Shown: positions 1,988 to 35,020, numbered from the stretch's first letter. The stretch is 64,000 bases of DNA from Minisyncoccota bacterium (GCA_041389085.1 JAWKSL010000001.1:228542-292541); one strand, 5' to 3'. Notes: generated by a model not told the origin, from the letters alone. Numbers and translations: made by a program.

Positions 1988-2009
1988 AGTGTGTGGAGGC
2001 TTGGGTTTT

Positions 2010-2038
2010 TTGACAAAAATTTCTTTTTGTTTTATTTT
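2010..2038 (+). promoter_or_regulatory. sigma70-like promoter of cassette A
   Basis: TTGACA at 2010, 17-nt spacer, then tatttt. Confidence 0.4.
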
Positions 2039-2083
2039 TGGATAGAGAAAAGTGCCTTAAAAGGCGCTAGAAAGGAGGCCTTG

Positions 2084-2317
2084 ATGCGAAACTGCCTTGC
2101 GTACATTTCGCGGCACTGGGGAGAGCTCCTTCTGGCGCCCCTCCTCGGAGCTCTCAATCTGGTGTACGCGGCTCACCAGGATGTGCCGCCTTGGCTGCAC
2201 AAAGTGCTATGCATCCCGGGGTGTGTGATCCTCGCAATCCCTCTCGTCCTCATCGATGACCTCATCGTCTGGAAGAGAGAAAGAGCGCTCCAGAAGACTC
2301 TCGATGTCTTCAATTGA
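2084..2317 (+). CDS. small (77 aa) two-TM membrane protein, GC-rich (cassette A)
   Basis: SD aggagg sits 5 nt upstream of the ATG. The protein is hydrophobic and carries a PPWL motif. The 1991-start ORF upstream is a read-through of the promoter region. Confidence 0.55.
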   Translation: MRNCLAYISRHWGELLLAPLLGALNLVYAAHQDVPPWLHKVLCIPGCVILAIPLVLIDDLIVWKRERALQKTLDVFN

Positions 2318-2398: not shown

Positions 2399-2519
2399 TC
2401 CTGAGCAATGTAAGGAGCAGCTCAAAGAACTAATCGGATCCCTCCCTCTGCACTATGCCAAGGCATAGCATGGAATGCTGGTGAGGGCTTTCTAAAATCT
2501 AAGATCGAAAATCTAGAAT

Positions 2520-4148
2520 CTATTTTCTTTGCTTTGCGGCTTTTATAAGCCCGCTAAAGAGTGGGTGTGGGCTTAGTGGTCGGCTTAGAAACTCTGGGTG
2601 AGCCTGAGTTGCTACAAAATATGGGTGGCCCTTTAACTCAATAAACTCCATAAGTTTCCCATTTGGAGATTTGCCTGAGAAAATAAGGCCTTTCTTTTCT
2701 ATCTGCTCTACATATGCGTTATTTACTTCGTAGCGGTGGCGGTGGCGCTCGATAACGCGTGGCTTTTTATACAAACTTTCGACAAGGCTTCCTTTTTTGA
2801 GCTTTGCTGGGTAGTTTCCAAGACGCATTGTCCCGCCATAGTGCTTCTTTGCGAGCTTTTCTTTTTGGCTTTCCATAACGTCTATTACTACGTGTGGAGC
2901 TTTCTTATCTATCTCTGCAGTGTGTGCGCCCTCAAGGCCGACTACGTTTCTCGCGAACTCTACAACTGCAAGTTGCATGCCGTAGCAAAGGCCAAGATAT
3001 GGGATCTTGTTTTCTCTACAGAACTTTATAACGTTTATTTTCCCCTCTATCCCCCTGCTTCCAAATCCTCCTGGCACGATTATTGCGTCGCACTTCTTAA
3101 GTTCTGCGAAGCTTGCCTTTTTGTTTTCAAAATCTGAACTATTAAGCCACCCTATTACTGGCTTAAGCTGCTTTTCATAGGCTGCGTGCTTTACCGCTTC
3201 GATAACAGAAATATATGAGTCGGTAAGAGTAAACTCTCCCGTAGCAAAATACTTCCCAACTATTCCTACCGTAACTTCGCCTTTTGGATTTTTAATGCGA
3301 GATACAAAACGGCGCCAATCTGAAAGGTTTGGTTTTCGTTTTCGTAAATTGAGCTTCTCTATTATTCGGTCTCCTAGGCCGTCGCGCTCAAAGTTGAGCG
3401 GAACTTCGTAAATACTGTCTACGTTTGGCGCTGAAATAACGTCTTGCCCTTGAAGGCCGCAGTTGAAGGCTATTTTCTCCTTTCGCACCTTGTCGAGCGA
3501 CACGTCTGCGCGCGCAATAATTATGTCTGGCTGAATTCCCACTGCGTTTGCTTGGCGTACTGCATTTTGAGTTGGCTTACTCTTAAGCTCTCCGTCCTTT
3601 TGCAACGGAAGAAAGCCAACTAAAACAAACAGGGCGTTTTGTGGGTTTTTAATTTTGAGCATTCTGTAAGCCTCAAGGAAAAGAATGTTTTGATACTCAC
3701 CTATTGTTCCTCCTACCTCTACTACAACAAAGTCGCTTTTGTGTTTTGCAGCACTCGCTTCGAGTTTGTCGATAACAAGCATTGGGATTTCTGGTACTAC
3801 ACTTACGCACTTTCCTTTGTATTCTAAGTTCCTCTCCTTTCTTATCATTTCAAGATAGAGAGAGCCTGTTGTCATATAGTCGCTGGTGTAGAGCTCAGTG
3901 TTTAGGAAGCGCTCGTAGTTCCCCATATCTTGGTCTGTTTCAAGACCGTCTGATAAAACAAAAACCTCACCGTGTTCGGTGGGGTTCATAGTTCCTGCAT
4001 CAACGTTTACGTACGGGTCTATCTTTATTGCGCTGACAGAAAATCCACGTGCTTGTAAAATTTTGGCTACTGAAGACGCGGTTATTCCTTTTCCGATTCC
4101 GCTCATCACTCCTCCGGCAACGAATATAAATTTGGTTGACTTATCCAT
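2520..4148 (-). CDS. pyrG: CTP synthase
   Basis: N-terminal KFIFVAGGVMSGIGKG and a C-terminal glutamine amidotransferase domain (GLCYGMQ). The likely start is MDKSTKFIFV. Confidence 0.9.
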   Translation of the reverse strand: MDKSTKFIFVAGGVMSGIGKGITASSVAKILQARGFSVSAIKIDPYVNVDAGTMNPTEHGEVFVLSDGLETDQDMGNYERFLNTELYTSDYMTTGSLYLEMIRKERNLEYKGKCVSVVPEIPMLVIDKLEASAAKHKSDFVVVEVGGTIGEYQNILFLEAYRMLKIKNPQNALFVLVGFLPLQKDGELKSKPTQNAVRQANAVGIQPDIIIARADVSLDKVRKEKIAFNCGLQGQDVISAPNVDSIYEVPLNFERDGLGDRIIEKLNLRKRKPNLSDWRRFVSRIKNPKGEVTVGIVGKYFATGEFTLTDSYISVIEAVKHAAYEKQLKPVIGWLNSSDFENKKASFAELKKCDAIIVPGGFGSRGIEGKINVIKFCRENKIPYLGLCYGMQLAVVEFARNVVGLEGAHTAEIDKKAPHVVIDVMESQKEKLAKKHYGGTMRLGNYPAKLKKGSLVESLYKKPRVIERHRHRYEVNNAYVEQIEKKGLIFSGKSPNGKLMEFIELKGHPYFVATQAHPEFLSRPLSPHPLFSGLIKAAKQRK

Positions 4149-7289: not shown

Positions 7290-8168
7290 TTAGTTTGTGA
7301 GCGCAAGCGCGTCGAGCTCAGATATAAGGCTTACGAAACCGAGGTGGTTGAAGTAATTCTTAATCTCCTCAATGTTGAGCGGCACTGTCTTTAGGTCTTC
7401 GAGACTGTCGGTGTAGATAGGGGCGTTTGTTTCTATGGTTGCAAGCTTTTTTGAGAGTAGCGCTATGTCTTTTTGCCCTTCGAGCTTCTTGGCTATCTTT
7501 GGGTTGATAATCACTAGGTTTTCAAAAATTTCTTCTACGCTTCCCCACTCTTTTATAAGCGGCGCGGCACTTTTAGGCCCGATGCCTTGCACTCCCGGAA
7601 TATTGTCGCTTGTGTCGCCAGTGAGCCCCTTTAGGTCTATTATCTGCTCTGGCTTAATTCCAAACTCCTCTTCTACGAGCGCTTGGTTGTACTGCTTAAC
7701 TTCGCCCCTTGGGCGGATAAGGTCTACAACTACGTCGTTGTCTTTCACAAGCTGGAGCAGATCTTTATCTCCTGAGAAAATAACTGTTTGTAGGCCCTTT
7801 TCGTCTTGGTAGCGTTTTGCGAGCGTACCGATAAGGTCGTCGGCTTCAAAGCCAGCAGCTTCAAAACTTTTAATCTTAAACAAGTCAAAAAGGGTCGATA
7901 TATTTTCTATCTGCCAGATAAGGTCGTCGTCCGCTTTTGTGCGCGTAGCCTTATACTCGCTGTACTGCTCCGCACGAAAGGTTGGCTCTGGTCTATCGAA
8001 GCAGGCGGCAATATACTCTGGGCGCACCTCTTTCCGGATTTTAAGAAATATTTTTGCCAGTCCATAAATAGCGCCTACTGGCTCGTTGTTTGGCCCGGTA
8101 AGTGGCGCCATCGCATGGTACATGCGGTGGATAAGGGCGTGGCTGTCTATAAGAAGAAGGTGCTTCAT
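7290..8168 (-). CDS. 5'-3' exonuclease (FEN-like, stand-alone Pol I N-terminal domain homolog)
   Basis: MKHLLLIDSHALIHRMYHA... matches 5'-3' exonuclease N-terminus, and there is an H3TH region. Confidence 0.8.
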   Translation of the reverse strand: MKHLLLIDSHALIHRMYHAMAPLTGPNNEPVGAIYGLAKIFLKIRKEVRPEYIAACFDRPEPTFRAEQYSEYKATRTKADDDLIWQIENISTLFDLFKIKSFEAAGFEADDLIGTLAKRYQDEKGLQTVIFSGDKDLLQLVKDNDVVVDLIRPRGEVKQYNQALVEEEFGIKPEQIIDLKGLTGDTSDNIPGVQGIGPKSAAPLIKEWGSVEEIFENLVIINPKIAKKLEGQKDIALLSKKLATIETNAPIYTDSLEDLKTVPLNIEEIKNYFNHLGFVSLISELDALALTN

Positions 8169-8171
8169 TGG

Positions 8172-8606
8172 TTAGTATTTTATCTCAAAATTTCGCGCTT
8201 CGCCTTTGTGCTCTATTTTCACCCAGATAGCATCTTCTGGTAGTAAATCTTTTGCTCTCTCTGCCCACTCTACGAGCACGAGAGCATCTTTTTCTTTTAA
8301 TATTTCTTGTAGTTGTAGAGCATTGAGCTCTCCTGTGTCCTCAAGGCGATACGTATCTATGTGGTAGGCCTTCTTAAATCCTTTCGCCTTCTCTTGGTCG
8401 AGCTGGTACTCCTTTATAAGAAGGAATGTTGGGCTAATGATTGGCTCATTTACTCCGAGGCTCTGAAGCAGCCCTTTGCTAAAGGTCGTTTTCCCTGCGC
8501 CTAGGTTTCCCTCAAGCCCAATAACTACCGCTTTCTCCTGTGGCCCTATCTTTTCTGCCACCTCTTTGGCAAACGCTACTGTTTCTTGTTCTGAATTTAA
8601 AATCAT
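8172..8606 (-). CDS. tsaE: tRNA t6A37 biosynthesis protein TsaE
   Basis: GLEGNLGAGKTTFSKGL P-loop; 144 aa. Confidence 0.8.
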   Translation of the reverse strand: MILNSEQETVAFAKEVAEKIGPQEKAVVIGLEGNLGAGKTTFSKGLLQSLGVNEPIISPTFLLIKEYQLDQEKAKGFKKAYHIDTYRLEDTGELNALQLQEILKEKDALVLVEWAERAKDLLPEDAIWVKIEHKGEARNFEIKY

Positions 8607-9127
8607 TGTATTGGGTTTTCTTTTTCGAACTGCTCAAACATTATCTCCTCTCTGGATTTTGGTATGTTTTTTAGCACATAGAGAGACACTGTGGCAACAA
8701 GTAGCCCGAGGAATATTGCTGTTGGCACAAGGGTGTTGTTTGCCTGTACTATTTCGCTTGGAGCGGCGCTAAAAGCGTTTGCTTGGAAAATGTTCTCTTT
8801 TATTTCTTGTGTGAGTGTTGGAGTTTTCTCTATTAGCCTACCCTCGAGAGCGGAGCCAGCATACCCAAGCTCGTCTACCACCTCTCCGCTTGGGGTGATT
8901 AGATACAAAGTTTCACCATTGTTGTTTAGTGGGAACTTTGAGCCAGCCTCAAACCTTTTCTCCTGCCCCGCCTCTAGCACTCCGGTTAAGAAGTAGGCCT
9001 TCCCCGACAGATCTTTAACGTGCCAGCCTGAAAGACTTTGTGTTTGACTACTATTGTTTTCTACTACGAAAAACTCTCCGCTTGCATCTGAGCCTTCAGG
9101 GTTTGGGAGGAAGGCTTTGATCTGCAT
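8603..9127 (-). CDS. lamin-tail-domain (LTD) protein with C-terminal TM anchor
   Basis: FLPNPEGSD...FFVVEN...LSGWHVKDLSG matches the LTD signature. Confidence 0.55.
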   Translation of the reverse strand: MQIKAFLPNPEGSDASGEFFVVENNSSQTQSLSGWHVKDLSGKAYFLTGVLEAGQEKRFEAGSKFPLNNNGETLYLITPSGEVVDELGYAGSALEGRLIEKTPTLTQEIKENIFQANAFSAAPSEIVQANNTLVPTAIFLGLLVATVSLYVLKNIPKSREEIMFEQFEKENPIQ

Positions 9128-10104
9128 TAGAGGCGCGTAGCTTTTAGGTGCTCAATCCCCGCCTCGGTAATGCGCCTGCCCTGCGGGGTTCTATTAAGAA
9201 GCCCGAGGCTTATTAGGTATGGCTCATACACCTCTTCGAGGATACTTTTATCTTCGTTTAATGCTGCCGCAAGTGTTGAAAGCCCCACTGGCCCGTAGTT
9301 GAACTTGTCGGCTATAGCCTCAAGCACCCTTCTGTCGTGCGGGTCGAGCCCAAGACTATCTACCTCGAGCATCTCAAGCGTCTTTCCTGCCACTTCAGCG
9401 TCTACCGACGCTATGTCGTGCACCTGAGCATAGTCTCTTACTCTTCTTAGGAGCCTGTTGGCTACACGAGGGGTGCGCCTACTTGCTTTTGCAACTATTT
9501 TCAGCGCATCTTCTTTTATATCTACCCCGAGAAGCGCTGCATTCCTGCGCAAAATGTCTTCAATATCTTTCTCTTCGTAGTAGTCGAGCTTAAAGCTTGC
9601 TCCAAAACGAGAGCGAAGGGGGTTTGAAAGTAGGTTTGGCCTGGTTGTCGCGGCAATAATAGTAAATGGAGGGAGGTCTAAGTTGAGTGTGCGAGCTCCT
9701 GGGCCCTTTCCTACAATGAGGTGAAGTTTTCTCATCTCCATTGCAGGATAAAGGACCTCCTCGATCAATCTATTTATGCGGTGTATCTCGTCTATAAATA
9801 AAACGTCGTTTGAATTTAAGTTTGTGAGCACCGCTGCTAAGTCCCCCATTTTTTCTAGTGCTGGGCCAGAGGTTATTTTGAGATTTGCTCCCAACTCGCT
9901 TGCCACAAGGTTTGCGAGCGTAGTTTTACCAAGCCCTGCACCTCCGAAGAATAGTAGATGGTCGCAAGCATCGCTTCTTTTCTTTGCTGCGTCGATAATA
10001 ATGCGAAGATTTCTCTTTGCTTTTTCCTGCCCTACGTAGTCTTCCCAGGTTTGGGGCCTTAGTATGGCGTCTATGGCTCTTTCTGGCTCTTTTTCTTCGC
10101 TCAT
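9127..10104 (-). CDS. ruvB: Holliday junction branch migration ATPase RuvB
   Basis: LLFFGGAGLGKTT Walker A and a characteristic RuvB C-terminus. Confidence 0.9.
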   Translation of the reverse strand: MSEEKEPERAIDAILRPQTWEDYVGQEKAKRNLRIIIDAAKKRSDACDHLLFFGGAGLGKTTLANLVASELGANLKITSGPALEKMGDLAAVLTNLNSNDVLFIDEIHRINRLIEEVLYPAMEMRKLHLIVGKGPGARTLNLDLPPFTIIAATTRPNLLSNPLRSRFGASFKLDYYEEKDIEDILRRNAALLGVDIKEDALKIVAKASRRTPRVANRLLRRVRDYAQVHDIASVDAEVAGKTLEMLEVDSLGLDPHDRRVLEAIADKFNYGPVGLSTLAAALNEDKSILEEVYEPYLISLGLLNRTPQGRRITEAGIEHLKATRL

Positions 10105-10197
10105 TTGCTTTGAACTATACCAGAATTAGGGTTTTTTGAGGACGATTTAGCTTCGAGCCCGCCTAACCGCCCTAACGGGGCTTGGGCGGGTAAAGGG

Positions 10198-10228
10198 TTG
10201 ACAAATCTGACATATGTGCTAGTATATG
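10198..10228 (+). promoter_or_regulatory. sigma70-like promoter (TTGACA, 17 nt, tagtatat)
   Basis: Consensus -35 hexamer and an AT-rich -10, on the strand opposite to the flanking ruvB and pilB genes. Confidence 0.4.
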
Positions 10229-10234
10229 CTGCAT

Positions 10235-10424
10235 ATTTGATCTTTCAACATATAAAACGCCCGTTTCGTTGTGGGCTTGGATTAGATACTTAGCACTCGG
10301 AAGAGCTGGTTTCGGCTGGCCCTCTCCTCGGTTCTATTCTGGATTCTCTTTTTATAAGAGTCTTTTTAATCGGTATCCCCCCAGGTGCTGGTTGTGCCCA
10401 CAACGAAACGGGTGTTTTTATTTA
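10235..10424 (+). ncRNA. candidate structured sRNA (~190 nt) closed by a 23-bp stem plus U-tract
   Basis: 10254-10276 aaaacgcccgtttcgttgtgggc pairs with 10396-10418 gcccacaacgaaacgggtgtttt (one G.U), followed by tttatt. There is no ORF. The family is undetermined; 6S-like or SRP-like are possibilities. Confidence 0.3.
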
Positions 10425-12086
10425 CTCTAAAGGGCCGGTAACCTTCTCCAATTCGTCGAGAGTGCTCACTCCTGCAACTACTTTTAGCAGTCCATCTTGC
10501 TGAAGAGTGACGAGGCCATTTTCCTTCGCAAACTTTTGTATCTCTGCCTCGCCGGCATTTTTTTGTATAAGAAATTCTATCTCTTCTCCCATTTTTAATA
10601 TCTCGAATATACCTACTCTACCTCTGTAGCCTGTCTGTCCGCATGTAGCGCACCCCCCTTCCTTCGCTTTCATTACTCTTAGCGCCTCTGGTTTTTTAAC
10701 GCGCTCAGGCAGGGCTGCGATAATGGCTTTTACCTTCTCAATTCTTGGGTCGTTAGTAGCCTCTTCTTTGCAGTTTTCACAAATTTTTCTTATAAGGCGC
10801 TGAGCTATTACTATATTGAGCGCTGGGCCAATAGAGCTTACGGGCGCTCCAAGATTTATGAGGCGTGGAATAACCCCGCTTGCTGAGTTTGTGTGCAGTG
10901 TTGAAAAAACTAAATGGCCGGTAAGCGCCGCCTGCATAGCAGTGTTCGCTGTTTCGGTGTCGCGAATTTCTCCGACAAGAATCACGTCGGGGTCTTGGCG
11001 CATTATTGCCTCTAGCCCACTCGCAAAGGTGTAATTTTTTCTTTTATCTACCTGTGTTTGCTCTATGCGATCAAGGTGGTACTCGATTGGGTCTTCGATG
11101 GTAATGATTTTTATCTCTGAGCTCGCAATGGTTTTTAGAAATGCGTAAAGCGTAGTGGTTTTACCGCTTCCGGTAGGCCCAGTATTTAGAATCATGCCGT
11201 TTGGCCTTTTAATTTCCTGACTTAAAACCTCAAGGTCATCCTCTCTTAGCCCTAGGTCTTTTAATGTTAGTTGAATAACTCGTGGGTCGAGTATTCGCAG
11301 CACGAATGTTTCTCCAAACTCTGACGGAATAGCGCTTACACGAAGGTCGATAGCTGAGTCTCCTACTGAAAAACTAAACCTTCCGTCTTGTGATTTGTTT
11401 TGAACGTTTAGCCTAAGCCCTGATAGAAGCTTTATTCTGCTTACTACGAGCTTGTATGCGCCTTCCGTAAGCTCTGCGTTAATGTCTTGTAGCGCTCCGT
11501 CTACTCGGTAGCGCACTCTCGCTCCTCCCTTCTCTGCCTCAAAGTGAATGTCTGAGGCGCGAAGAGCTAGCGCTCCTGCCAATACAATCTCGAGCACTCT
11601 TCCGATTGATTTTGAATGAATAGCTGACTGTATGCTTTCTGCGATGTCTTCTCTGTTTTTGAATTTACTTGCAAACTCCTCAATTTGAGTATCGATCGCG
11701 TCCATGCGACCAGTCGATATGGTCTTCACCTTAGGCACAAACTTATAAAAGCTCCATGCGTAGACGAGGCTATCTTCTGATGCAAGGAAAATCTTTGCTC
11801 TGTAGCCCTGGCGCAGCAACTTTTGAACTGCAACTTTTGTTTCTTGCGTTGCAGGGTCTGCTGCGGCTACATACACCTCCTTATTTTTGCTTGCGAATGC
11901 AGCAACTTGGGCACTCTTTGCCTCTTGTTCTGGGATAAGAGCAAGGGCCTCGGTTGAGACTGGTAGTGAGTGAAGGTCTACATACCCACTATTCCCTCTT
12001 ACTGCCTGGGCTTTTGTAAGGCGCTCTTGGGAATTTTCCCAAGCCTTTTTAATTCGCTCGTTTATTTCGTTATTGTTTGAGAGCAT
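10422..12086 (-). CDS. pilB: type IV pilus/type II secretion assembly ATPase (PilB/GspE family)
   Basis: GPTGSGKTT Walker A and a C-terminal CxxC zinc tetracysteine. The ORF opens at 12335, but MLSNNNE at 12086 is the likely start because the extension overlaps yebC. Confidence 0.8.
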   Translation of the reverse strand: MLSNNNEINERIKKAWENSQERLTKAQAVRGNSGYVDLHSLPVSTEALALIPEQEAKSAQVAAFASKNKEVYVAAADPATQETKVAVQKLLRQGYRAKIFLASEDSLVYAWSFYKFVPKVKTISTGRMDAIDTQIEEFASKFKNREDIAESIQSAIHSKSIGRVLEIVLAGALALRASDIHFEAEKGGARVRYRVDGALQDINAELTEGAYKLVVSRIKLLSGLRLNVQNKSQDGRFSFSVGDSAIDLRVSAIPSEFGETFVLRILDPRVIQLTLKDLGLREDDLEVLSQEIKRPNGMILNTGPTGSGKTTTLYAFLKTIASSEIKIITIEDPIEYHLDRIEQTQVDKRKNYTFASGLEAIMRQDPDVILVGEIRDTETANTAMQAALTGHLVFSTLHTNSASGVIPRLINLGAPVSSIGPALNIVIAQRLIRKICENCKEEATNDPRIEKVKAIIAALPERVKKPEALRVMKAKEGGCATCGQTGYRGRVGIFEILKMGEEIEFLIQKNAGEAEIQKFAKENGLVTLQQDGLLKVVAGVSTLDELEKVTGPLE

Positions 12087-12141
12087 TGCAATAATTATAG
12101 CGGAATTGAAGCGGATGCGCTGGTTTGCTATGTTGGTACAT

Positions 12142-12669
12142 ATGGCTGGACACAATAAGTGGTCAAAAATCAAACATAAAAAAGCCGCTGCAGACTCAAA
12201 GCGTAGTGGTTTATTTTCTAAACATATTGCTGCAATATCGGTAGCAGCGCGTGAAGGCGCAAACCCAGAGACAAATGCAAAGCTCCGCGCTGTTATCGAC
12301 CGCGCAAAGGCGGCAAATGTTCCGAAGAGCAACATTGAGAGCGCTTTGTCTAAGGCTGGGGCCGAGAAAGATCTTGCCGAGCTTGTACTTGAAGCTTACG
12401 GACCTGCTGGGGTTGGAATTTTAATAAGCGTTATAACTGACAATACTAATCGCAGTATTTCTGAACTTAAAAAACTTATTGCGGATGCGGGTGGGAAGTT
12501 TGCCGACGTAGGAAGTGTGAAGTGGGCTTTTGAACAATCTCAAGACTATCAGTGGGTCGCAAAGTTCCCGCAGACAGTTGATGCTGCAGCTAAATCAGAC
12601 CTTGAAAGAATTGTTTCTGAGATAGAACAACACCCTGATGTTCAGGGTGTTGTAACAAGCGCTGCTTAG
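12142..12669 (+). CDS. yebC: YebC/PmpR family transcriptional regulator (short form)
   Basis: MAGHNKWSKIKHKKA start. At 175 aa it is shorter than the typical ~240 aa. Confidence 0.7.
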   Translation: MAGHNKWSKIKHKKAAADSKRSGLFSKHIAAISVAAREGANPETNAKLRAVIDRAKAANVPKSNIESALSKAGAEKDLAELVLEAYGPAGVGILISVITDNTNRSISELKKLIADAGGKFADVGSVKWAFEQSQDYQWVAKFPQTVDAAAKSDLERIVSEIEQHPDVQGVVTSAA

Positions 12670-15167
12670 TTTTCTTTTCGTAGTGTAAGTTCTGCTTCGT
12701 AAGTATCCCTATCTTCGTCGCGCACCCTTACTCGCAGGGTGTTTTTGGTTTTTAGTATATCTTCGTCGAACTGAACTGTTTGATTGTAGGTATAGCTTTC
12801 CTCAAAGAATCCCTGCTGCTCATCGATAAGATTGTTGTTGAGATACACCTTTATCTCTTTTATTTTTTTCTCCAGCACTATGCTCATCTGTAGATTGATT
12901 GAGTCACCTGAAATTGTGCCGTTGTTTTCAGGGCTAATAATCACCACTGATTGGTCCTCTGATATCTGGCTTATTTTGCTTGGGTCATACGGCTCAGGTA
13001 TTGAGCCTGGCGGAATCGTTTGGTTGTACTGGCCTGAGTCAAATCCTGGCACGTTTTCTTTTGCCCATTGATTTACTGAGCTCTCCCAGTTTGCATACTG
13101 CGGATCTGCTGCGCGCTGTGGCTCTAGCCCAAGAGGGTTGTTTTTGTCGATGTAGAAAAGGATGTTGTGCACCTGTGGGTAGTCGTCTCCTCCATCTTTA
13201 TAGTTTACGATTGGCGATCCGTTCAGTATTGGTTTGTCTGTTTGCGGAGCCTCAACTATGGCAAAGTTTTCACTTTCTGTTTCTGGAAGTGCCTCTCTTA
13301 GGAATGCGCTCCACATTGGAATAGCAGAGAATACGTATCCCCCGTTTGGACTCATTGGCTTATTGTCGTTGTTTCCTGTCCAAATACCGACAGCAAAGTT
13401 TGGTGTATATCCAAACGCCCATACATCGCGGTAGTCATTACTTGTTCCAGTCTTAAGAGCTACGTCGTAGCCTGGAAATACTGTGAGTCCAAGGCTATTC
13501 CTAAATAGCCCTGATCGGAGCTCGGCGCTTGAAAGAATGTTGTTTATAAGACGTGGATATTCTTTTGCTACCACTCTTTTTTCTTCCGGCTCAAATTCTT
13601 CGAGGATGTTTCCGTCTCTATCTTCAATGCGTAAAATATAGCTTTGTGGGTGGTAAACTCCTTCCTCTGCAAGAGTGGCATATGCTCCTACAAGCTGCTT
13701 CAGCGTTACCTCTCCTCCTCCAAGCACCAGAGAAAGCCCAATCCTGTCTTTATCCTCAAGTGTTGTGACTCCAAAGTCTCTTAGGGTTTGAATGACATTG
13801 TCGATTCCTGCTATGTAAAGTGTTTTTACTGCTGGGATGTTCATTGACTGGGCAAGCGCAACCTCAAGCTGTACTGGCCCTCTAAATGCAAAGTCAAAGT
13901 TTTTTGGCTGGTAACTTTTTGCTCCTGCTGCAGCAAACTCTGTAAGCACATCAAACACAACCGTCTTAGGGGTTAACCCTTTCTTAAAGGCAGTCATATA
14001 GGTAAATGGCTTTGTTGCAGATCCTGGCTGTCTTAGCCCCTGAGTGGCTACGTTAAAGTTTCCATCTATATCTTCACTAAAGTAGTCCTTCGAGCCCACC
14101 ATGGCTAAAATTTGGCCAGTGTTGGTGTCTTGGGCAACGAGCGCAGCATTTGTTCCTCCGTAAAGCTCAGTGTTTCTTTCAACCCCTTCAGCAATTACCT
14201 TCTCTGCTATTTGTTGTATGTCCCAGTCGAGAGTTGTTATGACTTTTAGCCCTGAGCGGCGCACAAAATCCTCTCCGTATTTATCGATTAAGTATTCTTG
14301 AACTTCTATAGAAAAGTGAGGCGCCTTCAGCGCTCCTTTTGATTTCTCAAACTCAAATTCGTACTCCTGTGCGTCTACTTTTTCTTCGAGAGTTATGTAC
14401 CCAAGATCGTACATTCGCTCAAGCACATAGTTTTTTCTATTTAGTAGGTCCTCTACGTGTGAACCCCATGGTGAGTAGTAGGTAGGTGCTTGCGGAAGGC
14501 TTGCCAAAAGTGCTGCTTGAGGGAGATTTAACTCGCTTGCTGACATATTGAAGTATGTTTGCGATGCTGACTCTATTCCGTAAGCGTTTCCCCCGTATGG
14601 AATTTGGTTTAGGTAGAGGTGGAGAATTTCATCTTTTGTAAATTGCTTTTCAAGGCGCATTGCTAAAATGAGCTCCTTAATTTTTCGGATATAGCTCTTT
14701 TCTGGTGTTAGGAATGCGTTTTTTGCGAGCTGTTGCGTGATAGTTGATCCTCCTTGCTGCTTGCTGCCGGCCATAATATTTGCCACTACTGCACGTGCAA
14801 TAGCTGGAAGATCGATAGCTCCATGCTCATAGAAGCTCTCGTCTTCTATAGCAATCGTTGCGTTGCGCACGTAGTCTGGAACCTCGTCTTTTGATATAAC
14901 CGTTCGACGTTCTTCTTCAAAGAGCTCATACAGAAGGGTTTCTTCTGTTCGGTCGTATATTTTTGTTGACTCGATAACTTGTTGCTCTCCGAGTTCCTGC
15001 GGCGAAGGAAGGTCGTAGGTGAAGAAAAGGAAAATTCCGGCAAAAATAATACCGCACAAAACAGCGGTTAAAAATGAAAATAAGAAGATATGTTTCATTA
15101 TCTTCTTTTTTGTTCCTTCGGTAATAAATTTTCGGCGCTTAAACATGCGCCCAAAGAGGCTCTTCAT
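12666..15167 (-). CDS. class A penicillin-binding protein (transglycosylase + transpeptidase) with long C-terminal extension
   Basis: EDESFYEHGAID...GGSTITQQLAKN matches the GT51 domain; SATKP transpeptidase motif. Confidence 0.8.
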   Translation of the reverse strand: MKSLFGRMFKRRKFITEGTKKKIMKHIFLFSFLTAVLCGIIFAGIFLFFTYDLPSPQELGEQQVIESTKIYDRTEETLLYELFEEERRTVISKDEVPDYVRNATIAIEDESFYEHGAIDLPAIARAVVANIMAGSKQQGGSTITQQLAKNAFLTPEKSYIRKIKELILAMRLEKQFTKDEILHLYLNQIPYGGNAYGIESASQTYFNMSASELNLPQAALLASLPQAPTYYSPWGSHVEDLLNRKNYVLERMYDLGYITLEEKVDAQEYEFEFEKSKGALKAPHFSIEVQEYLIDKYGEDFVRRSGLKVITTLDWDIQQIAEKVIAEGVERNTELYGGTNAALVAQDTNTGQILAMVGSKDYFSEDIDGNFNVATQGLRQPGSATKPFTYMTAFKKGLTPKTVVFDVLTEFAAAGAKSYQPKNFDFAFRGPVQLEVALAQSMNIPAVKTLYIAGIDNVIQTLRDFGVTTLEDKDRIGLSLVLGGGEVTLKQLVGAYATLAEEGVYHPQSYILRIEDRDGNILEEFEPEEKRVVAKEYPRLINNILSSAELRSGLFRNSLGLTVFPGYDVALKTGTSNDYRDVWAFGYTPNFAVGIWTGNNDNKPMSPNGGYVFSAIPMWSAFLREALPETESENFAIVEAPQTDKPILNGSPIVNYKDGGDDYPQVHNILFYIDKNNPLGLEPQRAADPQYANWESSVNQWAKENVPGFDSGQYNQTIPPGSIPEPYDPSKISQISEDQSVVIISPENNGTISGDSINLQMSIVLEKKIKEIKVYLNNNLIDEQQGFFEESYTYNQTVQFDEDILKTKNTLRVRVRDEDRDTYEAELTLRKEN

Positions 15168-31626: not shown

Positions 31627-31680
31627 ATAATCTGATGGCAAAAAACACCCGAATTAATTCATAATTAATTCGGGTGTTTT

Positions 31681-33501
31681 TTATTCTATGTACATGTCGT
31701 CTTCGTCGGGTAGCCAGCCGCTGCCTCCATCTGCTGAGAGTACGTCGCAGTTTTCTTGCGGTATTTCGTAGAGGAAACGCGAAGGGTAGGAAAAGTACGA
31801 TATGTAGAGCTTTTTGCGTGCCCGCGTCATAGCTACGTACATAAGGCGCCTCTCTTCTTCTACCCCGTCCATTTCTTGGTAAGCCTTTTGGTGGGGCATG
31901 TTTCCGTCGTTTACTCCTACGATAAATACGGTGTCGAACTCAAGCCCTTTAGCTATGTGTACGGTCATAAGCTTTAGCTCAGACATCTTTTGCCCTTGCG
32001 GGTGCTTTGTTTGGTCGTCGTTTGCCTGCAAAAGGAGCACTTGGTCTAAAAATTCTCCCAAACTTTCAAAGCTGCTGGCGAAGTTTACTAACTCGGCTAT
32101 GTTTTCGATGCGCTCGTGCGCATTTTGCATCTTTTGCGCGAGGTATTCTGGGTATTCTGTGCTGGTGAGGAATATGTTTATTAGCTCAACTGCCGAGGTT
32201 GTTTGCACTTCCTTCATCGCAAGGACGTAAGCTGCCGTGCGTCTTTTGCCAAGGCTTTTTTCAAGGCGCTCAATCGATGCGGTATCTTTTTCATTGTGCG
32301 CAACGGTGAGCGCTGCGACTATATCTTTTATTTCTTTTCGGTCGTAAAAGCGAAGCCCTCCGTATATCTTATATGATATATGAAAGCTTAAAAGTGCTTG
32401 CTCGATAGAGCGGCTTTGCGCGTTGGTTCGATAGAGTATTGCAATGCTTTGGCTTGGGTCTTTTCTTCGCAACGACTGTATTTCGCTCGCTAGCCACAAC
32501 GCTTCCTCTTCTGCGCTGCTGCTTTGCACAAGAGTTATTGGCTGGCCTTCTTCGTTGTCTGTCCAAAGTTCTTTCTTTGCCTGCGTCTTATTGTTTTTTA
32601 TTAGTGCGTTTGCACTTTCAATTATTTTCTTTGTACTTCGGTATGATTGCTCAAGCTTTACTACTTTTGCGCTTGGCCAGTCGCGCTGAAAGTTGAGAAA
32701 GTTTCTAAAGTTTGCACCGCGAAAGCCATATATAGCTTGCTGATCGTCGCCTACTACGTTTACGTTTTTGTGTTTGTGCCCCAGAAGACGAATGAGTTGG
32801 TACTGCGCGTTGTTTATGTCTTGATACTCGTCTACCAAAATGTAGTCGAACATATCTTGGTATTTTTGTAGTACATTTTTGTGTGCAAGAAAAAGTTGCA
32901 CTGGTTTTTGAATGAGATCGTCGAAGTCGAGCGCATTATTTTCTTGGAGTTGTCTTTCGTACTCTGCGTAGACTTTGTAGATAAGAACGTCGCGTTCATA
33001 TTCACTGTCGATGAGCTCAGTTTCGTCTCTTAATTCGTTTTTTATCTTTCCGATTGCGCTTAGAGCTTGCGGTGGGCTTAATCTCTCTTTTGATATATCG
33101 AAAGACTTTAAAATCTTCTTTACGATCGACGCACTTTTATCGTTGTCGTAGATAGAAAGGTTTGGTGTGCGCTGCAAAAGAGCTACTTCTTGTTTTAAAA
33201 TTCGTAGGCCAAAAGAGTGGAAGGTTCCGATAAAAGGAGCGCCATCGAGCGGAAGCCCTGGGGAAAGCTTCATTTTTGCGCTCCCAAATACGCGCTCGCG
33301 CATCTCGTCTGCTGCCTTGTTGGTAAAGGTTATAGCAACTATGCGCTGTGGAGGTACGTTGTGTGCTTCAATCAGGTGCTTTAGGCGGCTGGTAAGGGCT
33401 CTGGTTTTACCACTTCCTGCCCCTGCAGACATAAGAAGAGGGCCGCTTCCGTGTTGAACAGCCTCTTTTTGAGGCTCGTTTAGGTTTTCGAGGTGTTTCA
33501 T
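31681..33501 (-). CDS. pcrA: UvrD/PcrA-family DNA helicase
   Basis: GAGSGKT Walker A and helicase motifs (VDEYQD); 606 aa, short form. Confidence 0.85.
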   Translation of the reverse strand: MKHLENLNEPQKEAVQHGSGPLLMSAGAGSGKTRALTSRLKHLIEAHNVPPQRIVAITFTNKAADEMRERVFGSAKMKLSPGLPLDGAPFIGTFHSFGLRILKQEVALLQRTPNLSIYDNDKSASIVKKILKSFDISKERLSPPQALSAIGKIKNELRDETELIDSEYERDVLIYKVYAEYERQLQENNALDFDDLIQKPVQLFLAHKNVLQKYQDMFDYILVDEYQDINNAQYQLIRLLGHKHKNVNVVGDDQQAIYGFRGANFRNFLNFQRDWPSAKVVKLEQSYRSTKKIIESANALIKNNKTQAKKELWTDNEEGQPITLVQSSSAEEEALWLASEIQSLRRKDPSQSIAILYRTNAQSRSIEQALLSFHISYKIYGGLRFYDRKEIKDIVAALTVAHNEKDTASIERLEKSLGKRRTAAYVLAMKEVQTTSAVELINIFLTSTEYPEYLAQKMQNAHERIENIAELVNFASSFESLGEFLDQVLLLQANDDQTKHPQGQKMSELKLMTVHIAKGLEFDTVFIVGVNDGNMPHQKAYQEMDGVEEERRLMYVAMTRARKKLYISYFSYPSRFLYEIPQENCDVLSADGGSGWLPDEDDMYIE

Positions 33502-33664: not shown

Positions 33665-34777
33665 ATGCATCAAAATGGACGGTTTTCCCTTCAGAATGAC
33701 GCATCAGAATCAAATTTGAACTCACACACTACAGGCCAAGGGAATGGCGACGACGCTCCCTATAGATGGCCTTCAAAACTTAAAAATCTCGTAAAATCCC
33801 CTCTTTTCGGGGTCGGGGCTCTTTTTGTAATTTTGGGTATCGTGTTTACTCCAAGCGCGAGTTCTCAGGTAAGTTTTAGCGAGCCTACTTATTCTTTCGA
33901 TGATGGGGCTCTTAGCCTTGTAGTCGCAAGCGATGTGCCAGACGGCGTTGTTTTGGCAAACGATCCTCTTGAAGTAGCAGGGTTTGTTATCCTTGAGGAG
34001 TCTGTAGCTCTTGGTAGCGATAGCCCTGTGTTTATGGAGGGGGCAGATGGGCAAAAGCTTACGCGCGACGAAGTTATAACCTACACCGTTGCTGAAGGCG
34101 ACACCCTTTCTACCATCGCTGAGCAGTTCGGTATTTCCCTTTCTACCGTGCTTTGGGCAAACGAAGGCGTTGATGCAAAGCGTGTGCGTATAGGGCAGAA
34201 GATCGTTATCTTGCCTGTTTCTGGCGTGCGCCACACTGTGAAGAGCGGCGACACTCTTTCTAAAATCGCTTACAACTACAAAGTTTCAGCTGCAAAGATT
34301 ATGGAGTTTAATGACCTTGATGACGACGTAGTGCGCATTGGTCAAGAACTTCTCATTCCTGGCGGAAAGAAAACTTCAACCGCTTCTTCTGGCTCTGTTT
34401 CAAACAACATGCCAAGCTACGCTGGCTACTATGCAAAGCCTGCAAGCGGATACAACTGGGGCTCTCTACACGGAAACAACGGAGTAGACATTGCAAACGC
34501 TTGTGGCGCTACCCCTATCTACTCAGCTGCAGCCGGAACTGTTAAGGACGCAAAGTTTGGATGGAACGGTGGATATGGAAACATGGTCAGCGTTTCACAC
34601 GACAACGGAACCTGGACTCTCTACGCACACCTTAGCGATATTTCAGTAAGCTCTGGACAGAGCGTTTCACAAGGAAGCCTTCTTGGATACATGGGTAACA
34701 CTGGAAAGGTTTCTGGTGCTACCGGATGCCACCTTCACTTCGAGGTGCGCGGTGCCGCAAACCCATTTGCACATTAG
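33665..34777 (+). CDS. LysM-LysM-M23 peptidoglycan endopeptidase
   Basis: Two LysM repeats (YTVAEGDTLSTIA and HTVKSGDTLSKIA) and an M23 HxH motif (GCHLHFEVRG). Confidence 0.8.
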   Translation: MHQNGRFSLQNDASESNLNSHTTGQGNGDDAPYRWPSKLKNLVKSPLFGVGALFVILGIVFTPSASSQVSFSEPTYSFDDGALSLVVASDVPDGVVLANDPLEVAGFVILEESVALGSDSPVFMEGADGQKLTRDEVITYTVAEGDTLSTIAEQFGISLSTVLWANEGVDAKRVRIGQKIVILPVSGVRHTVKSGDTLSKIAYNYKVSAAKIMEFNDLDDDVVRIGQELLIPGGKKTSTASSGSVSNNMPSYAGYYAKPASGYNWGSLHGNNGVDIANACGATPIYSAAAGTVKDAKFGWNGGYGNMVSVSHDNGTWTLYAHLSDISVSSGQSVSQGSLLGYMGNTGKVSGATGCHLHFEVRGAANPFAH

Positions 34778-35020
34778 CCTCCTCTCCTTCCTTAATTTTC
34801 TTAGTTTCCTAACTTTTCAGCTCTTTGTTTTTCTTTTCGAAAAATGCTCAATGATACACTTCGTAGTATCACCTGCGCTTTTTCGCCTTGAAAACAAAAA
34901 CTAAAAAGAGAAACCTAAATAACTAAGGAAGGAAGAGAAGGCTGGGGGGGCGCAGCGGCAGTTTCTCATAGCTGGCGCTTTTTGTTTTGGTTTGCTACCG
35001 TGGGCTTGAAGGAGGTTCAC

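Follow-up and report, generated by a model that had tools for sequence, protein, structure and literature searches.

The stretch of Minisyncoccota bacterium DNA analyzed here, 64,000 nucleotides (nt) in length and referred to as the window, raises the question of whether the short region between pilB and ruvB at positions 10198–10424 contains a gene of its own or only signals that serve its two neighbors. A preliminary description of this region had proposed a structured small RNA (sRNA) of about 190 nt, preceded by a promoter, closed by a long stem, and antisense to the 3′ end of pilB. Our analysis indicates that the + strand of the region almost certainly contains a real gene for a structured non-coding RNA (ncRNA) of a new family, for which we propose the name pilB-ruvB RNA. 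For the statement as a whole, namely, that the structured small RNA is new, specific to its lineage, active in trans, and probably bound by a protein, we estimate a probability of about 60%.

The two ends of the RNA are joined by a stem, designated P1, in which positions 10254–10276 (AAAACGCCCGTTTCGTTGTGGGC) pair with positions 10396–10418 (GCCCACAACGAAACGGGTGTTTT) of the + strand. The stem agrees with the one first described, with 23 pairs, 119 nt between the arms, and a single G.U pair. The arms are 96% complementary, and the lone non-Watson-Crick position reads G.U on the + strand and C.A on the − strand. The arm sequence, with up to three mismatches allowed, was unique to this site in the window (0 occurrences expected in 100 shuffles), and P1 was the sole near-perfect inverted repeat in the 64 kb with arms at least 100 nt apart, indicating that the pairing is not a chance match. 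The calculated folding energy was −73.2 kcal/mol (z = −6.4) for the + strand and −61.6 kcal/mol (z = −5.5) for the − strand. The tract TTTTTATTT follows the 3′ arm directly, as had been noted, and the U-tract at 10415–10424 (TTTTTATTTA, + strand) forms with P1 the shape of an intrinsic terminator.

The nearest relatives of the window RuvB were from Candidatus (Ca.) Harrisonbacteria. In the two closest species representatives by RuvB (L001 and L002; 64–65% identity), an inverted repeat of 23–24 nt with arms about 120 nt apart was also found between pilB and ruvB. The outer stem sequences of the window, L001, and L002 differ yet stay complementary, and the inner UGUGGGC/GCCCACA and the most conserved interior core, TGGnTTCGGCTGnnnnnCTCCTCGG (10307–10331 in the window, + strand), are common to all three. 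Scanning of metagenome contigs with this core as the search pattern yielded 42 loci, of which about 31 were real members with a flanking stem of 20–34 bp in a low-GC context of the Candidate Phyla Radiation (CPR). The other 11 loci were chance matches in high-GC coding DNA and were told apart by their GC content and by the lack of the flanking stem. The core had no matches in viral contigs. Because the set obtained with the core pattern is biased toward an invariant core, nine loci (L123–L131; RuvB 81–71% identical to that of the window or L001) were fetched through the RuvB protein alone. The covariance model R1 found the RNA in all nine, with scores of 75–113 bits. In these pattern-independent members, the apical loop was UUCG, UUUG, UCAG, UCCG, UACG, or UGCG with CCUCG constant, and one of them had GGGU/AUUCC in place of GGAU/ACUCC. 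Thirty-seven distinct homologs with the same architecture were obtained in this way, 28 by the core pattern and nine through RuvB, and these were aligned.

The RuvB proteins at the member loci carried the names Ca. Paceibacterota, Parcubacteria group, Ca. Wolfebacteria, Minisyncoccia, and Patescibacteria group, and model R1 had no match in 78 ruvB loci of non-Paceibacteria, one of them from Peribacteria. This covariance model found one copy of the RNA per locus, and the 64-kb window likewise has one. The L001 contig (CAZATK010000029.1) is labeled "Candidatus Saccharibacteria," and the closest relatives of its RuvB are from Parcubacteria/Harrisonbacteria; since this label is doubtful, we do not claim the family for Saccharibacteria. 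The RNA gene was retained across RuvB divergence down to about 50% identity, and the range of the family appears to be Paceibacteria/Parcubacteria (Minisyncoccia).

RNAalifold analysis of 29 sequences predicted 43 pairs, 29 of which showed compensatory changes. In the 37-sequence model alignment, 93.3% of the cells were paired, compared with 72.1% in column shuffles, and none of the 500 shuffles reached the observed value; when the partners were slid by 1–3 columns, only 40–51% of the cells were paired. Double changes were found in 32 of the 43 pairs, and the covariation score was 0.633 versus 0.225. The preliminary description was to be abandoned if orthologs showed no covariation; in fact, covariation was abundant, and the homologs carry the compensatory changes expected of an ncRNA gene.

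The closing stem P1, a helix of 20–34 bp made by the 5′ and 3′ ends, closes a three- or four-way junction. Double changes occurred in 20 of its 22 pairs, and 93.6% of its cells were paired in the 37 sequences. The outer part of P1 is free to vary, and the inner 9 bp (CUGUGGGCA/UGCCCACAG) are conserved, as is the junction-proximal UGUGGGC of the 5′ arm in the window; the inner 9 bp still covary at two positions (U-A to C-G or G-C, and G-C to A-U). Pairing and covariation also define the 3′ arm. On its 5′ side, P1 is joined to the next helix, P2, by 0–5 nt or, in some members, by a hairpin designated P1a. P2, of about 11 bp (5′ strand at 10279–10290 and 3′ strand at 10330–10340 on the + strand of the window, both supported by covariation), had double changes in 9 of 11 pairs and 83.5% of its cells paired. 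It leads to an asymmetric internal loop with 5–12 nt on the 5′ side (10291–10298, + strand) and 2 nt (UC) on the 3′ side; the conserved UAG that opens the 5′ side in the window is present in at least 80% of the sequences. Beyond the loop lies P3, a hairpin of about 12 bp (10299–10327, + strand) with a bulged C (10324), covarying middle pairs, tandem U.G/G.U pairs, and a C/U-G pair that closes a UNCG-type loop (UUCG at 10311–10314). The GGA/UCC pairs at the base of P3 never vary (G-C in 37/37, G-C in 37/37, and A-U in 36/37).

In sequence, the arm composed of P2, the loop, and P3 is nearly invariant, whereas P4, P5, and P1a are variable. In P4 (10341–10363, + strand), the 5′ strand is rich in pyrimidines and the 3′ strand in purines. 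A hairpin at its position was predicted in all 37 members, with only 3–4 bp in the compact L087, L089, L097, and L116, and all three modeled pairs covaried. Among the compact members, of which the L087 type measures about 135 nt, L087, L089, and L097 came from Hainich or Rifle-type groundwater or sediment sites. P5 (10367–10394, + strand), with the C-rich loop CCCCCA and a sequence in common with the closest relatives L123–L126, is present in about two-thirds of the members. Where P5 is missing, most members have P1a instead, and the remaining ones a three-way junction.

The modeled pairs also revealed the strand of the RNA. Over all of them, G.U cells outnumbered A.C cells (318 versus 56), and 91.5% of the cells were paired on the strand corresponding to the window + strand, compared with 76.7% when the opposite strand was taken as the RNA. 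Covariance-model scores for the reverse strand were 36–40 bits, about a third of the 93–113 bits for the forward strand. A near-consensus σ70 promoter, defined by TTGAC(A/T), a spacer of 16–18 nt, and an extended −10 element TGnTAnnnT with a score of at least 10 of 13.5, was located upstream on the RNA strand in 35 of the 37 members and on the antisense strand in one. The −10 element lies 7–62 nt from the start of the modeled P1 among the members. A U-tract directly follows P1 in the window, L001, L002, L087, L111, L116, L124, L125, L129, L131, and others, and a separate GC hairpin with a U-tract lies downstream in L088, L092, L093, L100, L105, L106, and L113, so that most homologs have one or the other. 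The RNA thus has its own promoter and terminator signals and a clear strand asymmetry, in line with its first description as an independent gene.

In the window, the −35 hexamer TTGACA (10198–10203, + strand) matches the consensus and is followed by an extended −10 element, TGcTAGTAT (10217–10225, + strand), with TG at 10217–10218 and TAGTAT at 10220–10225. These elements had been recognized correctly, and only the spacer needs correction: it is 16 nt, and the 17 nt given earlier corresponds to the register AGTATA. The −10 hexamer is 28 nt from the 5′ arm of P1. From the positions of the promoter and terminator, a primary transcript of about 190 nt is predicted at 10232–10424 on the + strand, its start placed about 7 nt past the −10 element and its end within the U-tract. 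The RNA gene measures about 170–190 nt in the window and 135–180 nt across the members.

Two other statements of the preliminary description held in part. The interior of the RNA is GC-richer than its surroundings, although the difference is slight (about 0.49–0.50 versus 0.39–0.45). An open reading frame (ORF) was said to be absent, which is literally incorrect, since a 53-codon ORF with a TTG start is present at 10269–10430 on the + strand; it is correct in that no frame is conserved among the homologs. No reading frame was open across the conserved core in all members, four members had no open frame, and the indels among members were not multiples of three, as expected of an ncRNA.

The flanking genes were identified as previously named, and both lie outside the RNA. 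One is ruvB (9127–10104, − strand; RuvB_N, E = 3.6e-69), divergent from the RNA, and the other encodes a pilB-type T2SSE/type IV pilus assembly ATPase (10422–12335, − strand; PF00437, E = 6e-116) and is convergent with it. The order pilB, RNA on the opposite strand, and ruvB was found in nearly every locus with enough sequence, and the RNA was on the strand opposite to ruvB in 36 of 37 copies. The wider order (7290–15167 in the window; L123–L131) was often a yebC/TACO1-like gene, pilB, the RNA, ruvB, a gene for a lamin-tail-domain (LTD) protein, tsaE, and a 5′-3′ exonuclease gene. In the window, PBP1A is encoded upstream of pilB, and ruvB lies apart from its usual partners ruvA and ruvC. The association with the 3′ end of pilB is the more persistent one: in L088, ruvB is 9 kb off, and L100 has pilB without ruvB. 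The overlap with pilB is 3 nt in the window, where TTTTTATTT overlaps the pilB stop codon (10422–10424) on the other strand. Across the members, the spacing between P1 and the pilB stop codon ranged from an overlap of a few nt to about 590 nt, and a separate terminator frequently intervened. Since this range is so wide, overlap with pilB is no defining feature, and the earlier definition of the RNA as antisense to the pilB 3′ end was not retained. Where P1 abuts pilB, the two convergent genes may use it as a common terminator; in the window, an A-rich tract precedes P1, so that a − strand copy would also receive a U-rich tail.

In L126 (1590–2501; RuvB 74% identical), pilB and ruvB are 900 nt apart, and the ruvB strand carries the RNA. 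The whole module, including its promoter (TTGACA-17-TGcTATACT), is inverted with respect to pilB and ruvB, and a separate terminator precedes ruvB. The G.U strand bias, the promoters and terminators, this inversion, the single copy per locus, and the lack of a conserved frame together indicate an independent non-coding transcription unit. The same results on strand, promoter, terminator, inversion, copy number, and frame exclude a gene for a small protein, a leader of ruvB, a hairpin that acts in termination only, and a miniature inverted-repeat transposable element (MITE).

Several further observations concern the region between the RNA and ruvB. In some members, such as L098, the ruvB ATG abuts the −35 hexamer of the sRNA, and ruvB mRNA would therefore start inside or beyond the sRNA gene or continue from pilB. 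Such a ruvB message would be antisense to the RNA, which leaves room for an antisense interaction. In L127/L128, the called ruvB (2501–3622; 373 aa with an N-terminal extension) overlaps the RNA gene (2406–2571) by about 70 nt; its start was probably mis-called because the RNA gene is unannotated. In the window, a promoter-like site, TTGAAA-16-TATACT, matches the consensus on the − strand at 10221–10248, and its −10 element overlaps that of the sRNA. It may be a ruvB promoter, in which case the two promoters would be arranged back-to-back and compete. The sequence TGGTATAGT is located 9 nt 5′ of the ruvB ATG (10105–10126 region), suggesting a nearly leaderless ruvB mRNA. A GC-rich hairpin at 10149–10192 (GCCCGCC...GGCGGG, then TAAAGGGTTGACA) stops a few nt before the −35 hexamer and has no U-tract after it on either strand. 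It was observed in a subset of the homologs only (window, L002, L087, L097, L123, L124, and L126), and in L126 it travels with the inverted RNA module.

The RNA did not correspond to any family represented in Rfam 15 (4227 models). At gathering thresholds, the whole window yielded only five tRNAs, and 141 kb of member loci yielded only tRNAs. At E ≤ 10, the region 10050–10500 gave only noise (snoRNA, TarA, and miRNA models), and at E ≤ 5, no family was found at the RNA position in more than one of 11 homologous loci. ARAGORN detected neither a tRNA nor a transfer-messenger RNA (tmRNA) at the site. The classes to which the RNA might have been assigned according to the preliminary description (6S RNA, signal recognition particle (SRP) RNA, RNase P RNA, tmRNA, riboswitches, or a simple terminator) therefore did not match the site. 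Rfam and motif inspection likewise gave no support for SRP RNA, 5S rRNA, RNase P RNA, tmRNA, Y RNA, riboswitches, or ribozymes. By-eye likenesses to SRP domain IV, 5S rRNA, RNase P conserved regions, and the 23S GTPase-associated center (GGAUG-UUGGCUU) were unsupported and were dropped. We also dropped CsrA binding to GGA sites, as the GGA motifs are base-paired here; a kink-turn, as there are no tandem G.A pairs; a retron ncRNA, as there is no reverse transcriptase; and a Y RNA/Rsr system, as there is no rsr neighbor. No description of this RNA or of any Paceibacteria small RNA was found in the searchable literature, and a paper on TM7x, a cultured CPR bacterium of a different lineage (Saccharibacteria), speaks of "no currently validated small RNAs."

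How might this RNA act? A strong σ70-type extended −10 promoter is placed to drive transcription away from ruvB, the 5′ and 3′ ends pair as P1, and P1 with its U-tail, or a separate hairpin in other members, is shaped like an intrinsic terminator. The long, flush-ended P1 would give stability, and together with the strong constitutive-type promoter it would fit a stable and abundant RNA. We propose that the folded RNA then acts in trans, most likely bound to a protein that would recognize the invariant P2-P3 arm and the conserved inner P1. Action in trans is suggested by the lack of a downstream gene on the same strand and by the other hairpins, which keep their shape only. It is also suggested, as is a ribonucleoprotein (RNP), by the location of the most conserved nucleotides, which lie in helices, the bulged C, wobble pairs, the asymmetric loop, and inner P1 and not in an exposed seed. 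Such a pattern is typical of elements recognized by proteins or engaged in tertiary contacts. One extension of this proposal, which we regard as possible but rather unlikely, is that the RNA represents a new class of complex-folded Paceibacteria housekeeping RNA, either an RNP subunit or a ligand-binding or catalytic RNA, in which P3 (about 12 bp) is bent back along P2 (about 11 bp) and the apical hairpin is docked on inner P1. Since P2 and P3 are of near-equal length and the loop between them is strongly asymmetric, folding of P3 back onto the base of P1 is conceivable, if speculative.

Several points weigh against a protein-bound RNA that acts in trans. The trans-acting RNP mechanism itself has only the conservation pattern as its basis, and we hold it tentatively, at somewhat less than an even chance. 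The invariance of the core is partly a selection artifact, since 28 of the 37 aligned sequences were picked by the core pattern, and the nine unbiased members do vary in the loop. The transcript, its ends, and its abundance are deduced from sequence signals, and the survey was confined to the DNA adjoining ruvB or pilB. The persistent tight convergence with pilB could mean a local role in cis or by antisense pairing and not mere synteny, and regulation by base pairing could be the task of the CU-rich tracts, namely, CUCCUC, the 5′ strand of P4, and the C-rich loop of P5.

The last two points lead to the view that the RNA is a base-pairing or antisense regulator, which we judge unlikely. As an antisense RNA, it would pair with the pilB-ruvB read-through transcript, to which it is perfectly complementary, or its own read-through would pair with the pilB 3′ end, and RNase III cleavage or transcriptional interference would tune pilB and ruvB; in trans, its CU-rich segments would pair with the Shine-Dalgarno regions of mRNAs. 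It speaks for the antisense version that pilB is the convergent neighbor in nearly all members, with its stop codon often 0–15 nt from P1, that ruvB mRNA would be antisense to the RNA where the ruvB ATG abuts the sRNA −35 hexamer, as in L098, and that the −10 element of the sRNA overlaps that of the − strand promoter-like site in the window. However, a cis-antisense RNA could do without an invariant multi-helix fold that covaries and whose G.U pairs favor the RNA strand, and the variable distance to pilB (0 to about 590 nt), the terminator that often lies in between, the inverted module of L126, and the distant ruvB of L088 do not fit a local role; a conserved overlap with pilB, as expected of a cis-antisense RNA, was not found. 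Pairing in trans is in keeping with the presence of the CU-rich tracts and the C-rich P5 loop, but the conserved CUCCUC is paired in the model, and the P5 loop is limited to one subgroup.

Less probable still, and very unlikely in our estimation, is a divergent 6S-type RNA, that is, an open-promoter mimic that would sequester the σ70 RNA polymerase holoenzyme. The RNA resembles 6S RNA (ssrS, RF00013) in its size (135–180 nt, against about 150–200 nt with paired ends for 6S RNA), its strong housekeeping-type promoter, and its ends paired in a helix of about 23 bp, with a second long arm, P2 plus P3, of about equal length (both about 22 bp). That no 6S match was obtained in about 200 kb of Paceibacteria sequence examined also speaks for this view. 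The likeness, which had been pointed out earlier, does not extend to the architecture as a whole. No Rfam 6S match was obtained even at E ≤ 10 in the window or at E ≤ 5 in the 11 homologous loci. The 5′ strand between the long arms is 0–5 nt or the closed hairpin P1a, leaving no single-stranded template and no two-sided central bubble, and the extra sequence 3′ of the junction folds as P4 and P5. Moreover, one arm is conserved sequence-specifically, whereas 6S RNAs, to our knowledge, conserve shape and not sequence. That the element is no more than a bidirectional intrinsic terminator for pilB or a part of the 5′ leader of ruvB, and yields no RNA itself, appears highly improbable; the two roles had been named earlier as an alternative. 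In the window, P1 lies exactly between two convergent units, touches the pilB stop codon, and has an A-rich tract on its 5′ side and a U-tract on its 3′ side, and the − strand folds well too (−61.6 kcal/mol). Nevertheless, a terminator would be a short hairpin with a small loop and conservation limited to pairing, whereas the "loop" here is a conserved, covarying multi-helix domain of 119 nt. The G.U pairs favor the + strand, and in 35 of 37 members a consensus promoter points in the opposite direction. Conventional terminators separate from P1 occur in many members, in several of them between P1 and pilB, and A-tracts upstream of P1 are not general. A leader or riboswitch would lie upstream of ruvB on its strand, whereas 36 of 37 copies are on the opposite one. 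To a MITE or a gene for a small protein, we assign practically no likelihood. The inverted repeats 119 nt apart recall the 23-bp terminal inverted repeats (TIRs) of a MITE, but dispersed copies with conserved TIRs were not seen in the examined loci; the window and each locus have a single copy of the element at an unchanging syntenic position, its arms differ between genomes yet remain complementary, G.U pairs included, and no viral or mobile-element matches were obtained. The 53-codon frame at 10269–10430 exists mechanically, but it is not conserved, and the indels do not preserve it.

A structured RNA acting in trans would be of interest for the biology of its hosts. Paceibacteria (Parcubacteria) are a large lineage of the CPR/Patescibacteria and comprise ultra-small uncultured bacteria with tiny genomes and few regulators. 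The role of the RNA is likely basic for the host cells, because it occurs at one locus with a consensus promoter and its near-invariant arm is kept down to about 50% RuvB identity. It offers a testable handle on the RNA biology of the CPR and is a candidate for a new Rfam family, and its annotation would correct at least one ruvB gene call (L127/L128) that runs into the RNA. If the reading as a housekeeping RNA is true, the CPR would thereby gain its first lineage-defining ncRNA, one involved in the reduced, episymbiotic biology of these cells.

Three other structured elements were observed in the window. At 34778–34945 on the − strand, after an ORF at 33665–34777, a nearly fully paired rod hairpin of about 80 bp was predicted (−69.8 kcal/mol, z = −8.7). 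Folding of the + strand gave only −46.6 kcal/mol, suggesting that G.U pairs favor the − strand. Either a second structured RNA or a long hairpin element may be present here; the Rfam matches, all to plant miRNA precursors, were spurious. A palindrome cluster at 1866–1988, between the divergent ORFs 1134–1892 (− strand) and 1991–2317 (+ strand), includes a perfect palindrome of 18+18 nt at 1953–1988. At 31640–31682, a 20-bp hairpin without mismatches is accompanied by A and T tracts and looks like an ordinary bidirectional terminator.

Among known systems, bacterial SRP RNA (4.5S; Bacteria_small_SRP) resembles pilB-ruvB RNA in its long helix, which ends in a conserved module of internal loop and tetraloop of the kind recognized by proteins, and in its housekeeping-like appearance with a strong promoter and a conserved locus. 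In contrast to SRP RNA, pilB-ruvB RNA has the additional hairpins P4 and P5, a UNCG-type apical loop, no AGCA/GGAA motifs, and no Rfam match; it also lacks the GNRA tetraloop of SRP domain IV and the sequences conserved in the symmetric and asymmetric loops of that domain. The bacterial Y RNAs (YrlA/Yrn1), partners of the Ro-type protein Rsr, share with it what we take to be an end-paired long stem, a conserved helix with a bulged C, and a U-rich 3′ tail. They differ in that pilB-ruvB RNA has no tRNA-like module and no Rfam match and bears its conserved helix in the distal arm, not in the closing stem; no rsr gene was seen among the adjacent genes in the approximately ten loci with annotated flanks. 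The closest analogs, in our view, are orphan lineage-specific structured sRNAs such as the raiA motif RNA, Bacteroidales-1, Chlorobi-1, and Pedo-repair. Although pilB-ruvB RNA matches none of these motifs in sequence or structure, it shares with them confinement to one lineage, a fixed syntenic position, its own promoter and terminator, and a covarying multi-stem fold with some highly conserved nucleotides, and like them it is non-coding.

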